From: Eledone cirrhosa
Taxonomy: Eukaryota
Assembly (NCBI GenBank): GCA_964016885.1
Contig: OZ024748.1
Coordinates: 10,912,001-10,976,000, forward strand
Direction: 5' to 3'
DNA length: 64,000 bases
Below are positions 6,247 to 48,020 of the stretch, piece by piece. The notes under the pieces are model-generated. The model saw only the letters and a list, made by a program, of their open reading frames with translations, had not been told where the DNA came from and made no database searches. Numbering within the stretch: the stretch's first letter is position 1; the number at the start of each line of letters is the position of its first letter. The translations under genes were made by a program, and so were the position numbers.

Positions 6247-6308
6247 CACGGGATATTGGTAAACTAACACACTGATGGATTTTAACTATTCTTGGATCAA
6301 TTTTACAT
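6247..6308 (-). CDS. G1 third coding exon (phase 2 to 1): (R)CKIDPRIVKIHQCVSLPISR(G)
   Basis: Long pyrimidine tract ending ccag acceptor, GTAAGT donor at 6246-6241, 62 nt open in the phase expected from the 7038-7116 exon. Same phases as G4 exon 41081-41160. The terminal exon is unresolved. Confidence 0.7.
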
Positions 6309-6744
6309 CTGGAAGGAGAAAAGAAATAAAACAAGAAATATAGATTAAAAACAAATAAAATTACACATAAAAATGACAAACAACAGCTCAGTAATAATTA
6401 CTTGTGCTAGGGTTATATAGATCATCATCATTACTGTTTTACATCCATTTTTCCACGCTAGCATGGGGTAGATGAGTTAGCTTAGTTGTGGGCAACGCCA
6501 GGTCAGGTGACCATGTTTTGCTCATAACAGAACTGATTTTGGCTTCATTTCTACAGCTGGATGCCCTTCCTAAAGCCAACCTCCTTTACAGTGAGTACTG
6601 GGTGCTTTTTGTCATGACGCCTATATATGTGTGTGTGTGTGTGTGTGTGTGTGTGTTCTGAAGAGATTATTTTGGTAAAAACAAGAGCAAGCAGGAGAAA
6701 GCTCTCAACATTCGTAGTTTGTAGTTACGATGGAGATTCAGTAT

Positions 6745-6970
6745 AATAATAACATTAATAAAGATGCTGATGTTACATAAATCATTTATTCATTATAATT
6801 ATTTCAATGGTTCTCCCATGCAATCAAGATGTAATTCATTTGAGGATACTGTTCTCATAACAACAACAAATGCATGAATTACATCTTGATTGCATGGGAG
6901 AACTGTTGAAATAATTATAATGAATAAACGATTTATATAACATCAGCATTTTCACTAATGTTATTATTAT
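6745..6970. repeat. Fold-back (~95-bp arms, ~35-nt loop) in a G1 intron; another lies at ~8288-8405
   Basis: gatgctgatgtta...cccatgcaatcaagatgtaattca and its reverse complement. Confidence 0.75.
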
Positions 6971-7037
6971 ATATGTGTGTGTGTGTATCGATGTTGAAGG
7001 AAATACAGAAATTTTAGAGAGATTCTTTGTTACATAC

Positions 7038-7116
7038 CTGTTGCCTTGGCAGGAGTAAAAAGACGGTCTGTAAAATCCTCCAAAGTGTATACTCCCAACA
7101 CTTAAGAGAGTTGCGT
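7038..7116 (-). CDS. G1 second coding exon (phase 1 to 2): (Y)ATLLSVGSIHFGGFYRPSFYSCQGN(R)
   Basis: ttattatattctcag acceptor, GTATGT donor, 79 nt open, phases join both neighbouring exons. Confidence 0.7.
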
Positions 7117-7279
7117 CTGAGAATATAATAAGAAGAACAAAATTATTGAGTACAGTGCTCAGGTGCACTACAACTCATCAAAGGTGCATGTATAGTACAT
7201 AGAATAATGTACAAATGTCAGGAAAGTGAACAGTGTATGAGTCATGATATACATGTGTGTGTGTGTATGGGGGGATATC

Positions 7280-43502: not shown

Positions 43503-43668
43503 TCAAAATTGGAATGCAAATACTACAGCAACCACATTTTACTGTTTTCAGACAATCATCTATCAGTGGACATTCAGTGCAACCCAAGTTAGAGTCACAG
43601 TTGAAGACAAACCCAGCAGCCAACACAAGCAGTGCATTAAGGACTGAAGTAAATACTATGTTCTTCAT
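43503..43668 (-). CDS. G4 first coding exon: signal peptide + N-half of IGFBP-like domain; full model is a 195-aa secreted IGFBP-like / thyroglobulin type-1 protein
   Basis: MKNIVFTSVLNALLVLAAG-FVFNCDSNLGCTECPLIDDCLKTVKCGCCSICIPIL with CGCCxxC; phase-1 GTAAGT donor at 43502-43497. Model 43668-43503, 42775-42671, 41735-41687, 41160-41081, 39308-39121 = 588 nt with no internal stop. Confidence 0.88.
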
Positions 43669-46600
43669 ATTAATATCTCTGTCTTCTCACTGAAACTTAA
43701 CCAATGTCTGCAAATATAAACTTCCTTCTTGATCAGGATGTCATCTTATATGTTTGTATAATCCCATAACTACTGATAGAGTCATAGGGGCGCCACATTG
43801 ACATACGGAAAACTAAGGTCATTATTTTTTTAAAAACCTGACAGAGCCCATCTCCTCTCCAGGTCTGAATACAGCAAATTTCTTGCAGAGAAGAAAATGA
43901 GAAAATAGCAGTGAGAAAGATATATAGAGGAAGAATTGACCCCAGTATTAGACTGGAACTTTTTTTTTATCGACCTTGAATGGATAAAAAGCAAAGTTGA
44001 CCATGTCAGGATTTGAATTCAGAGAGCAGAGAGCTGGAAAGAATACCACAAAGCATTTTATCCAACATTCTAATGACTCTACCAATTCATTACCTTCCAT
44101 CTCATATAGCAATAAATGTAAAAAAAAAAAAAAAAAAAGTTAATCAAGACCAGATAGGAGAAACCCAATTAAATTATTTCCATCATTTACTTTTACCATG
44201 ATTCTTGGATATATTTTCTTTATTTCAGAAGAAACAGTTGGTATCTCACATTAAAAAAAACATGTTTTAACTCTTTAGCTTTTAAACCAGCTGTATCCGG
44301 TCAGAATTCTCTCACTCTTTTCTGTTCAAACTAGCAGTAACTGGCCGCTCATACTGATGTTAAGGTACTGTTTTCAAAATAAATAATAGCAAAATCTCAT
44401 AGATTTTGATGTTATGTTAGATAATTATATGAGGTAAAGCCTTTATAGTGAAAACACAATAGTAAATATAGAGTAATGTAAATGCTAAAAAGTTATGGGG
44501 TTTTCACCTGGCATTGATGGGAGCAGTGTGTGTGTGTGTGTGTGTGTGTGTGTATGTATGTATGTACACTCAGGCCACACACACATAGACATCATCATCA
44601 TGATCATTATTTTCCATGCTTGCATAGGTTAGATGTGCTGTCATGTACAGAGGCTTGACAGGTTGAGTGGTGGTACACTTGCATTTCTAGTTCCTACAGC
44701 TGGATGCCCCTCCTTACACCAACCACTTTAGCATGTAGTGAGAGCATTCTATTGTGACTCCAGGGTGAACTGGGTGCTTTTTTTTATCATTGCACCAACA
44801 CTATTGCTTCCCACACACACACATATCATCATCATCATTTTACATCCGCTTTTCCTTGCTTGCAAGAGTAGGACAGGTCCTCATCAGCACAGCATCTCTC
44901 CATTAATCATATATGTATATCATCATCATGTCTATCGTCCACACTAGCATGGGTTAGACCATTCTTGTGTGAAATGCCCGATTTACAAAGGATAAGCTCT
45001 GTGTCAACAATTCTTTAACTGCTTCTTACATTTGATGTAGGTGTTGAAGTAATCTACAAACCACTACTAGAAAAAATGAACAAATGCTATCAATATTGTG
45101 ATCCCCGCCCGCTAAAAAAAGCCCTTCTATGCTAAACCAGAGCTTGGATATTTAGAAGCCTAGCCTAGATTTACTACATACCCCTTCTTCTCCCAAAATA
45201 AAATAATTTCAACTTAGTTTTGGAAGGTGACAAACCTAGTTTTTGACATTTCTCATGTTGATCACAATAAGCCTACACTTTCCACTACACAGCTCTCATT
45301 CACCCATGCCAAATCATTTGATATGTTATAATACTATACGACCCCCTCCACTGCTACACATCAAAGATGTTTTAAAATATATTTATCATTCGCAGGAAAT
45401 TGTATATTTAATCTAATTATACAAATTTGTATAAAATGCATCATTCTAACACCGATCTGTCATTAGTAAAGATACTATAAACATTTGAATTATCAAGCCA
45501 CACGAAACTACATAAGCAAGATATTCTTTAAAAGTACAAAACATCACATTCAAAATTAAAGTCTTTACCGTAATACTGCATATTTTCATAATAATCTGGT
45601 CACTGATTAAGATGCTATAAACATTTGAATTGGCAAACATATTTTTAAATATTTTTTGTTCAATCATTACAGAATGTTAAGCCTTAAATGTTCGCATTTA
45701 ATTGAGATTTGTTTCAAATTCATTGAGAGTTGAACACAGAACGTAGAAGACCGGAAATAAACACTGAAAGATATTTTAGACGCTCAACAATTTTTGAACA
45801 TTACGACGCCACTATCGTCTGTTTAATAATAAAGTCATCTAACTAAATATATCGATAACAACAATTTTGGGGCAAGGGAAAGTCGATTAAATCGACCCCA
45901 GTGCGTTACTAGCACTTTATATTATCAACCCCTCAAGGATGAAAGGTAAACCTAACCTCGGCGGGATTTGAACTCTGAACGTAAAGGACCCAAATGATAT
46001 CATCCCATGATGATATTTGTTTTTGAAATGCGCATAATAAAATACATGGAACTCTTTTAACCATCTTTTGATTTTATATTATATATATATATTTAGAGAG
46101 GGAGAGAGACTGAGAGAGAGATACAATAGCATATTATGCTATTGTATCATTGACACAAGACCAGCAATATGAGAGAAAGCGAAAGTCGATTATATCGACC
46201 CTAGTATTTAACTGGTACTTCAGTGTTTATCGATCTCGGAAGGATGAAAGACAAAAATAACCTCAACTAGATTTGAACTCAGATCGTAGAAATTCGTTAT
46301 TAAATGCCGCAAAGCAAGCAATACTGCTAATCTATCGCTCCTCTCCACACAATAGCATAATGATTTCTGATTTAGGCAGAAAGCCAACAATTTTGGTGAA
46401 AAGGGAAAGTCCATTAAATCGACCCCAGTTCATTACTGGTACTTTAGTTTATCGACCACGTAAGAATGAAAGGCCAAGTTAATCTCGGCGCGATTTGAGC
46501 TCAGAACGTAAAGAGCTAAAACAAATACCGTTAAACGTGTCCGATGCTCTAACGCCTCTTCCAGCCACCTGCCCTACACATAACGGCATAATGTATGCAT

Positions 46601-47648
46601 GCATGGCCCCGTAACTCCTGGGAGTGGTAGGGGCGCCGTATTGACACAGCGTGTTTCTTGGGCATTTAAAAACCTGGCGGAGCCCATGTCCTCTTCAGGT
46701 CTAAATACAGCAGATTTCTTCCAGAGAAGGATAGAATGAAAGTGAAAAAAGATATAGAGGACGAATCGACCCTAGTATTTGACTGGTACTTTTTTTTATC
46801 GACCTCGAATGAATGAAAGCAAAGTTGACCTTAGAGGGATTTGAACCCAAAGAGCCGGAACGAATGCCTCAAAGTATTCTATCAGGCGTTCTAACAACTC
46901 TGCCAGTTCGCCGCCTTAACAGCATAAACATTATTTCTACTTTTGGCACAAGACCAGCAATTATTTCCAGTGTATTACTGGTACTTTATTTTATCGACCC
47001 CGTAAGGATGAAAGGCAAAGTTAACCTAGGCGGGATTTGAACTCAGACGGTAAAGGGCCGTAACTCTATACCGCAAAGCATGGCGTCCGACCCTCTACCG
47101 ATACTACCAACCCAAACATTCTCTACACCACCAACTACTTTTGTATATCTGCGGAAACCTGTGAATGTCAGGAGATCGATTATTGATTAAAATATATCAA
47201 CAACAGGAGGGTCGGGATTGACAAATGGGAACTTTGAAAAACTCATGGGATAAATGAGATATGAATATTAGTGTTTCTCTCTCTGTGTACAGTAAGATAT
47301 TTGTATTTATGTCAATGTGTGTGAGAGAGATATTATTTTCACAGTATTTAGCAACATATTTAAAAAAATATTTTTTCTGAAATAATTTTAATGCATTGCA
47401 TCAGTTATAGAACGAAAGTGAGAGATACTTCTCTTTCTCTTTTGGATTGGCAGTATCGGTGCCCTTATAACAGGACACTGGTACACCCTTGCCATTCTGA
47501 GTTCAAATCCCGCCGAGGTTAACTTTGCCTTTCATCCTTACGGGGTCGATAAAATAAAGTACCAGTAATGCACTGGGATAATTGCTGGCCTTGTGCCAAA
47601 TGTAGAAACAATTGTATATCGTCATAAATCTGTGACACTACATACATA

Positions 47649-47747
47649 CAGGGTGTCCCCAAAAATGTATACAAACTTTGATTACCTGTACAGACAATAT
47701 TTATTAGAATGCTATTGAAATGTGTATACATTTTTGGGGACACCCTG
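47649..47747. mobile_element. Tc1/mariner-type MITE; copies at ~29404-29505 and partial at ~20172 and ~14803
   Basis: TA|CAGGGTGTCCCCAAAAATGTATACA...TGTATACATTTTTGGGGACACCCTG|TA. Confidence 0.85.
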
Positions 47748-47967
47748 TAGATATATATATATATATATATGAAAGAAATATCGTTGTTTACAAAAACATT
47801 ATAAAAATTGGAAAGAGGTAGGTGGAGAAGTTAAACCAGCTCAAAATACAGAAAATTATTATAATAAACAGTACAAAAGGCTGTTTCATACTTCTTTAAA
47901 AGAACTTCAAACAAGGTTAAGGATTAAGAAGAACGAAAGCAAGAAAAATAACAATATTTCAACTTAC

Positions 47968-48020
47968 GACGGAATCCACCCCGTTTGTTGACAAACACTT
48001 CCACAAACTAACCGTGTGTA
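47968..48020 (-). other. Putative non-coding exon 1 of G4
   Basis: GTAAGTTGAAA donor at 47967-47962; GTTTGTTGACAAAC at 47983-47996. Confidence 0.55.

Follow-up and report, generated by a model that had tools for sequence, protein, structure and literature searches.

A gene cluster for predicted secreted cysteine-rich proteins in the octopod Eledone cirrhosa: likely shortened copies of one gene, with fast-changing mature exons in the youngest pair

The Eledone cirrhosa window C8:10912001-10976000 (the whole 64,000-nt stretch analyzed here, from a 3.0-Gb genome) carries four genes, G1 to G4, all on the minus strand, which encode predicted secreted Cys-rich proteins (Table 1). The initial annotation of this DNA had described them as four related genes with particular exon sizes and phases, and our exon models confirmed this. 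The four exons encoding the signal peptide and the first Cys residues were recovered on the minus strand from a six-frame reading; they measure 166 (G1), 166 (G2), 163 (G3), and 166 nt (G4) of coding sequence, each with a phase-1 GT donor, and are followed in all four genes by a phase 1-2 and then a phase 2-1 exon, with AG/GT at all sites. Common to the four genes, as had been claimed, are also the acceptor and leader 5' of the ATG and a first-exon donor motif at 47968 (G4), 34457 (G3), 22965 (G2), and 15178 (G1). This motif occurs once 5' of each of these genes and of a distant fifth member, G5, and a G4 query met those five places in 404 kb searched. Genome searches with the exons of G4 and G1 gave a subfamily of five members (G1-G4, G5), and all protein relatives recovered by searches were from octopods.

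Table 1. Gene features of the cluster; positions count from the first letter of the window.
Feature	Position	Strand	Basis or remark
G4 non-coding first exon	47968..48300	-	Donor 47968; X4 contig runs 344 nt past 48300
G4 exon 2: leader, ATG 43668, predicted signal peptide, 8 Cys, phase-1 donor	43503..43707	-	Both ends spliced in X4 contig
G4 exon 3, phase 1-1: completes the 12-Cys domain with its last 4 Cys; no counterpart in G1-G3	42671..42775	-	X4 contig splicing
G4 exon 4, phase 1-2: first half of thyroglobulin-1 repeat 1 in shortened form	41687..41735	-	Predicted; G5, C1, and homologues agree in phase and position
G4 exon 5: second half of repeat 1, 80 nt as in G5/C1, phase 2-1	41081..41160	-	Predicted; tblastn 58% to G5
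G4 exon 6: complete thyroglobulin-1 repeat and stop	39121..39308	-	Pfam PF00086, E 7.8e-10
G4 likely last exon in the 3' untranslated region (UTR), AATAAA near 37708, approximate 3' end	37690..37919	-	Predicted; a 346-nt stretch downstream of G5 is 69% alike
G3 first-exon motif and donor	34457..34501	-	
G3 exon 2: leader, ATG 29196, predicted signal peptide, six Cys	29034..29232	-	
G3 phase 1-2 exon, without Cys	28058..28121	-	
G3 phase 2-1 exon, in-frame stop; AATAAA 27353 just 3' of old donor	27365..27435	-	
Copy of the likely G4 3'-UTR exon downstream of G3, approximate 3' end	25325..25554	-	96% block 25043-25853 vs 37413-38217
G2 first-exon motif and donor	22965..23009	-	
G2 exon 2: leader, ATG 19961, predicted signal peptide, six Cys	19796..19997	-	
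G2 phase 1-2 exon, without Cys	18842..18905	-	
G2 phase 2-1 exon, stop 46 nt 5' of old donor; AATAAA 17716	17728..17795	-	
G1 first-exon motif and donor	15178..15207	-	
G1 exon 2: leader, ATG 8617, predicted signal peptide, 8 Cys in G4 spacing	8452..8656	-	
G1 phase 1-2 exon, probably what is left of the first half of repeat 1	7038..7116	-	Likeness to parent repeat weak: 56/1000 shuffles as high
G1 phase 2-1 exon: no stop up to the donor (102 aa and 11 Cys); 113 aa and 12 Cys when read past it	6247..6308	-	

G4 is the longest of the four, with five coding exons encoding 195 aa and 22 Cys. Its front part is spliced in a contig of run X4 (record 25, 1494 nt, depth 21.6), which joins 47968 to 43707 and 43503 to 42775 and reaches the exon end at 42671, with 0 other letters; we took this run as RNA-derived solely from that spliced contig. 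On the 3' side of the contig 507 nt remain, the length expected for exons 4-6 (317 nt) at their predicted joints and a UTR of 190 nt. Exon 6 scored 38.5 bits on Pfam Thyroglobulin_1 (PF00086; cut-off 20.6) and encodes a six-Cys repeat with the QC and CxCV motifs. The layout first proposed for G4, a 12-Cys domain plus 1.5 thyroglobulin-1 repeats, was right in outline, and the 'half' repeat turned out to be a repeat without its first two Cys. These two residues are absent in G4, G5, and two full-length homologues, and present in the genes C1 and C2 described below and in homologue P0001. G5, located 19.6 Mb away at C8:30.547-30.567 Mb, is an intact five-exon gene (208 aa, 22 Cys) that carries the first-exon motif and a likely 3'-UTR exon as G4 does, and the ratio of nonsynonymous to synonymous substitution rates (dN/dS) between the two is 0.44.

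Some minor features accompany G4. In its last coding exon (39121), as in those of G5 and C3, the stop codon is directly followed by a GT donor-like site, and from the sequence an intron seems to begin right after the stop codon in all three genes. A GAT/GAC-rich tandem repeat of ~800 bp (39343-40164) lies just upstream of the last coding exon and produces false long frames on both strands; the long Asp-rich frame 40164-39124 was rejected as coding, being intronic GAT repeat. Single-contig differences were seen at 43680 in the leader (run X3) and at 43717 in the acceptor region (run X4).

The search with the thyroglobulin-1 exon also met a cluster at C8:9.49-9.64 Mb, 1.4 Mb from the window genes. 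Two of its genes, C1 (plus strand) and C2 (minus strand), encode 221 aa in five exons with the same phases as G4, but with two complete repeats. This exon layout identifies the phase 1-2 and 2-1 exons as the two halves of repeat 1, and G4 as a derived copy. C1 and C2 arose by a recent inverted duplication, and their last thyroglobulin-1 exons differ from each other at 19 of 185 sites, versus 49 of 1613 non-coding sites (dN/dS 2.1, p 0.20); judged by these counts, the pair shows a milder form of the exon acceleration of G2 and G3. Further thyroglobulin-1 repeat exons, including C3 and C4, lie near 9.592-9.608 and 9.640 Mb. The first exon of C1 met the Argonauta protein GAB1605670 ('nidogen-2-like') at 71% identity, the 1 match among 8 candidates. 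This protein has the parent layout, and C1/C2 match it with 25 of 26 Cys and 67% identity at the other residues, with the exon phases of G4. In a parent of this type both repeats are complete and the mature chain has 24 Cys; G4 is 21% identical to it outside Cys. Such proteins with a 12-Cys domain and two thyroglobulin-1 repeats are probably the 'saxiphilin-like' class.

A profile of six first exons met 4 proteins among 1.84 billion representatives, and their clusters comprise G4-type proteins from O. vulgaris, O. sinensis, and Argonauta, and a short form from O. bimaculoides. The G4-type homologues (O. vulgaris CAI9735574 and CAI9735577, O. sinensis LOC115220918, and Argonauta GAB1609307) share the G4 order of signal peptide, 12-Cys domain, repeat 1 minus its first two Cys, and repeat 2, which is complete in the two 203-aa proteins. 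Compared with the two full-length ones, G4 keeps 22 of 22 Cys, with 40-43% identity at other residues. The short form, LOC106877883 (isoforms of 120, 110, and 76 aa), consists of a signal peptide, the same 8 Cys as in G1, and a Cys-poor tail. Its 8-Cys exon runs straight into this tail, which starts like exon 4 of the G4 type, and so it lacks the same exon as G1. LOC106877883 is the best first-exon match of G1 (score 133, versus 125 for G5), with 24 of 55 residues and 8 of 8 Cys in common; its tail is not detectably like that of G1 (215 of 1000 shuffles scored as high).

In a tree of 13 first-exon rows (two further O. bimaculoides isoforms were left out), G1, G2, and G3 formed a clade with support of 95/93, nested among the G4-type rows and far from the long form. 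In a second tree, without C2 and a row identical to that of O. sinensis, all four short forms grouped together (65/80), and one old exon loss is a possible reading of this grouping. Because Argonauta has both the long and the G4 types, long-to-short is the simplest direction of change, and the outgroups back it. These comparisons support the idea of a family with signal peptides that was shortened by exon loss and early stops. They do not support two other parts of the initial annotation, namely that the family is lineage-specific, given that the G4 type is annotated in three other octopods and the 8-Cys short form in O. bimaculoides, and that it was caught in the act, given that the exon loss predates the split of G2 and G3, perhaps even a species split. 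Judged from sequence, exon loss is an old event in what is an octopod-wide family. The family is already in databases as uncharacterised proteins, and our literature searches for the family or its accession numbers found no description of a function, with most subscription papers outside their coverage. Word-based protein searches with G4 exons 2 and 6 returned no relative among 5 candidates each, and an Atlas search with exon 2 gave no usable match.

G1 has exactly the 8-Cys spacing of G4 (5,2,5,5,1,0,2), with 4 of the 25 non-Cys residues identical. The initial annotation had found this spacing and no equivalent of the second coding exon of G4, and both observations held. With DNA and protein profiles of that exon, no trace appeared in the introns of G1, G2, or G3 (best E ~1); for the G4 control, E was 1.8e-34 and 4.9e-22. 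Profile searches for a remnant of repeat 2 downstream of G1 (46 kb), G2, and G3 were likewise negative. In the N-domains of IGFBPs, disulfides form within the first eight Cys and within the last four. If this pairing holds here, the loss of exon 3 would remove two whole disulfides and leave G1 a closed 8-Cys module, which fits the retention of 8 of 8 Cys in G1 at 16-29% identity elsewhere.

The last exon of G1 was not found; candidates at 5682 and 3706 had no support, and a weak DNA-profile match to the missing exon (E 0.002), 140 nt 3' of G1, was rejected because it lies inside a 48-bp repeat and in the wrong order. The family of 48-bp tandem repeats occupies 5945-6224 and 40325-40852, and its units behind G1 carry AATAAA at 6152, 6104, and 6019, which could end the G1 transcript. 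A single-sequence structure model of the 33-aa Cys exon of G1 (predicted local distance difference test [pLDDT] 71, predicted template modeling score [pTM] 0.33) was not used. A search of X4 over 3600-20100 at 98% gave no contig joining exons of G1 or G2 among the best 8 of 5409 rows, which were filled with repeats; no conclusion on expression follows from this.

G2 and G3 are a tandem duplicate that could be aligned in blocks from 5' of exon 1 to just past the last exon, and the copy of the likely G4 UTR exon behind G3 was carried along in this duplication. A haplotype artefact is unlikely, given 2.2-2.4% divergence and many unshared insertions; DNA runs over G4 showed 0-2 differences per 130-500 nt piece. 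Six Cys, an early stop, and 83 aa had been reported for both copies, and these numbers are correct, but the two sets of six Cys are not the same, with spacings of 2,5,8,6,2 in G2 and 2,5,2,5,5 in G3. From the ancestral eight, G2 lost Cys 3 and kept Cys 7, G3 did the reverse, and both lack Cys 6 and 8; the copies share a new Cys near the start. That both ended with an even number from a seven-Cys ancestor may, on these sequences, reflect selection or chance. A fixed six-Cys framework of the defensin or knottin type was not found in the two copies, nor was a Pfam match. Both carry the stop in the phase 2-1 exon and AATAAA 11 nt 3' of the old donor, and the short copies are cationic, with a net charge of +4 to +6.

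We compared the two copies site by site outside simple repeats. Differences were found at 115 of 4893 non-coding sites (2.35%) and at 19 of 161 sites of the mature exons (Fisher P 3e-8, unchanged without gap-adjacent sites). They were distributed as 0/36 in the leader, 2/66 in the signal part, 12/97 in the mature part of exon 2, and 7/64 in the next exon. An independent alignment gave 107 of 4943 for non-coding sites and 2 of 22 for the last coding stretch, with a maximum of 7 differences in any 97-site non-coding window against the 12 seen in exon 2. None of 200000 random pairs of non-coding windows reached 19 differences. Changed residues were found in 15 of the 17 changed mature codons, replacement sites exceeded the flanking non-coding rate (P 5e-9), the reading frame survives both indels, and none of the splice sites is damaged. 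A search of the assembly for a third copy as a possible sequence donor found none (2 matches in all). The fast evolution ascribed earlier to the short copies was thus borne out, with mature exons changing at about five times the rate of flanking DNA. This pattern of substitutions suggests diversifying selection.

The front domain had been called IGFBP-like. By motif this is apt, as CGCCxxC with 12 Cys is present in G4 and G5 (G1 has 8 Cys, and G2 and G3 lack the motif), but by profile it is not, and the nearest weak matches were to AmFPI-1, a fungal protease inhibitor of insects. Pfam IGFBP (PF00219) matched neither the window exons (E up to 1) nor 7 full-length homologues (E up to 10). True IGFBPs consist of one N-domain, a linker, and one thyroglobulin-1 repeat, whereas G4 and its parent type have two repeats. 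The Cys count of the AmFPI-1 family, 12, is found in the front domains of G4, G5, C1, and C2. Homologues P0002 and P0006 scored 15.6 bits on AmFPI-1 (PF12190; cut-off 25, E 0.025), and the other homologues gave no match. The top three Atlas matches were AmFPI-1 (0.82-0.84, leads only), and the profile match to the AmFPI-1 structure PDB 3BT4 had an E of 0.23. The PF12190 profile found no match over the genome, and none in any control either. A model of the Argonauta G4-type protein P0005 from a 16-row alignment had a mean pLDDT of 66, below 50 over most of residues 17-50. This low-confidence model gave weak matches to Dkk1, the IGFBP N-domain, and AmFPI-1 with Z of 3.4-3.7: for IGFBP 2dsp_B, Z was 3.7 with a root-mean-square deviation of 3.3 over 56 aligned residues, and it was 3.4 for AmFPI-1 and 2.9 for SIBD-1. 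Foldseek gave no match at E 0.001.

AmFPI-1 (PF12190, PDB 3BT4) and SIBD offer a precedent for a front domain standing alone, though AmFPI-1 keeps all 12 Cys where G1 has 8 and G2 and G3 have six, and all matches to it were below the cut-off. In PMC3278429, AmFPI-1 is a 12-Cys domain with six disulfides that inhibits fungal serine proteases and trypsin, which Manduca CP8 does not. The last exon of G4 encodes a complete six-Cys repeat like those of the thyropins (equistatin, the p41 invariant-chain fragment, and saxiphilin repeats), and homologues matched thyropin structures; G1-G3 have no such repeat. On sequence grounds, G4 and G5 are most likely secreted inhibitors acting through the intact repeat in a thyropin-like manner, and their AmFPI-1-like domain is possibly inhibitory too. 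Section 2.3 of PMC7693380 cites equistatin for inhibition of the thyropin type. The same source, in its main text and Tables S1, S2, and S5, lists a signal-bearing thyroglobulin-1 protein of 227 aa in the posterior salivary gland proteome of O. vulgaris, found with 2 peptides and 42.5% identical to a Pomacea saxiphilin-like protein.

We consider it somewhat probable that the cluster consists of progressively shortened copies of a single gene, with G1 keeping the 8-Cys front domain only. A gene of the C1/C2 type, with signal peptide, 12-Cys domain, and two thyroglobulin-1 repeats, gave rise to the octopod-wide G4 type by loss of the first two Cys of repeat 1. Missing from the line of G1, G2, and G3 are the frame-neutral phase 1-1 exon, which encodes the final four Cys of the front domain, and the last repeat; the tree suggests the order of these losses. 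In the ancestor of G2 and G3, a stop arose in the phase 2-1 exon, and the AATAAA 11 nt behind the old donor may have come into use. After the duplication, the mature exons changed five times faster than flanking DNA, and the signal and leader did not. That the fast change is limited to the mature part suggests an outside partner that varies; the peptides may be secreted and bind foreign, variable targets, for example microbes or their proteases. As to G2 and G3 themselves, predicted to yield cationic peptides of 61 residues, the odds moderately favor functional, selected secreted products with defence as the lead role. Host defence in mucus, gland, or egg secretion would be the first guess and venom the second.

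Several points weigh against this account. A pairing of G1 with LOC106877883 was nearly rejected (p-AU 0.058, approximately unbiased test), and given the 65/80 support for the joint group, there may have been two separate exon losses. The front domain stays below every Pfam cut-off, and the link of the 227-aa gland protein to the family rests on size and description. Different sets of six Cys, with most of CCxxC gone, are unusual for a working disulfide scaffold. The dN/dS of G2 versus G3 is 1.46 overall (Fisher p 0.46) and 1.63 in the Cys part, also not significant. There are ~4 silent changes in 43 sites of the mature part (P 0.018 against the non-coding rate, and 0.27 when the 2 purely silent codons are counted alone), and homogenised introns or a locally raised mutation rate may account for part of the exon contrast. 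No protein like G2 or G3 was found among the 1.84 billion representatives, with 4 matches in all, and G1-G3 are known here as predictions from genomic sequence.

Decay is the alternative that fares best, although we regard it as doubtful. It holds that G4 and G1 work and that G2 and G3 are decaying duplicates, their exon divergence being due to relaxed constraint, with gene conversion keeping the non-coding DNA alike. The two in-frame stops in the last exon, a Cys pattern broken differently in each copy, a dN/dS near 1 with mildly raised silent changes, and the missing homologues in other species would all fit. Neutral change, however, predicts equal rates in exons and introns, whereas two separate exons show a five-fold acceleration on either side of an intron with 2.6% divergence, and no acceleration is seen in the signal part of exon 2. 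Conversion sparing only the mature exons would itself need selection on them, and both copies have kept an unbroken frame, ATG, set of splice sites, and first exon. A bolder form of selection is equally tentative, namely that G2 and G3 represent an undescribed octopod class of effector mini-peptides derived from a multi-domain inhibitor by exon loss, early stop, and intronic polyadenylation, with alternative three-disulfide frameworks (each copy having dropped a different Cys of a seven-Cys ancestor) and strong positive selection, for venom, skin, or egg secretion. If true, every stage from parent to mini-peptide would have been kept on one chromosome.

That the short genes encode venom peptides of the posterior salivary gland acting on prey, which overlaps with the functional reading above, appears unlikely. 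A conserved signal, a hypervariable mature exon changing faster than signal and introns, and 3-nt indels recall the accelerated evolution of conotoxins (PMC3862624), and the peptides are small and cationic, with net +5 and +4. Unlike conotoxins, G2 and G3 share no ancestry with them, have no propeptide, do not hold a Cys framework as toxin superfamilies do, and exist in two copies only. The same pattern of conserved signal and variable mature part also marks immune and reproductive proteins, which counts against venom in particular. The gland proteome of O. vulgaris does include a signal-bearing thyroglobulin-1 protein, but its 227 aa (PMC7693380) correspond to the size of the long parent form and not to that of G1-G3. 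It is very improbable that the family binds insulin-like peptides as IGFBPs do, with the short forms as SIBD-like single-domain modulators: CGCCxxC and 12 Cys ahead of thyroglobulin-1 repeats, the UniRef name 'IGFBP N-terminal domain-containing protein' of two O. vulgaris homologues, and the weak modeled fold matches to the IGFBP N-domain and SIBD-1 would agree with it, but no exon or full-length homologue matches Pfam IGFBP, there are two repeats rather than one, fast diversification fits poorly with a conserved hormone partner, and the four-Cys subdomain that holds the main IGF contact of the IGFBP N-domain is missing from G1-G3.

Duplication, truncation, and accelerated mature exons are a process well known from venom and immune families; the new elements here are a pedigree contained in a single chromosome and, in G2 and G3, an acceleration restricted to exons. 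Parent, intermediate, and short forms stand together, with a measurable selection signal in the youngest pair. Many of the short secreted Cys-rich proteins in cephalopod glands are of unknown origin, and the locus provides a testable pedigree for some of them. Domain loss may also have been followed here by a rewiring of disulfide frameworks, and the junctions and peptide masses of G1-G3 are concrete candidates for proteomics and bioassay.

Elsewhere in the window, fragments at 10100-11590 (minus strand), 11720-12075, 25825-26190, and 29919-30488 (plus strand), broken by stops, are presumably remains of the reverse transcriptase of a long interspersed nuclear element (LINE) and of a mariner-like transposase. 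At 62328-63998 on the minus strand, a Lys/Ser/Glu-rich open frame of 557 aa ends with an ANC1 homology domain (Pfam AHD, E 4.7e-15) and is the last exon of an AF9/ENL-like gene.

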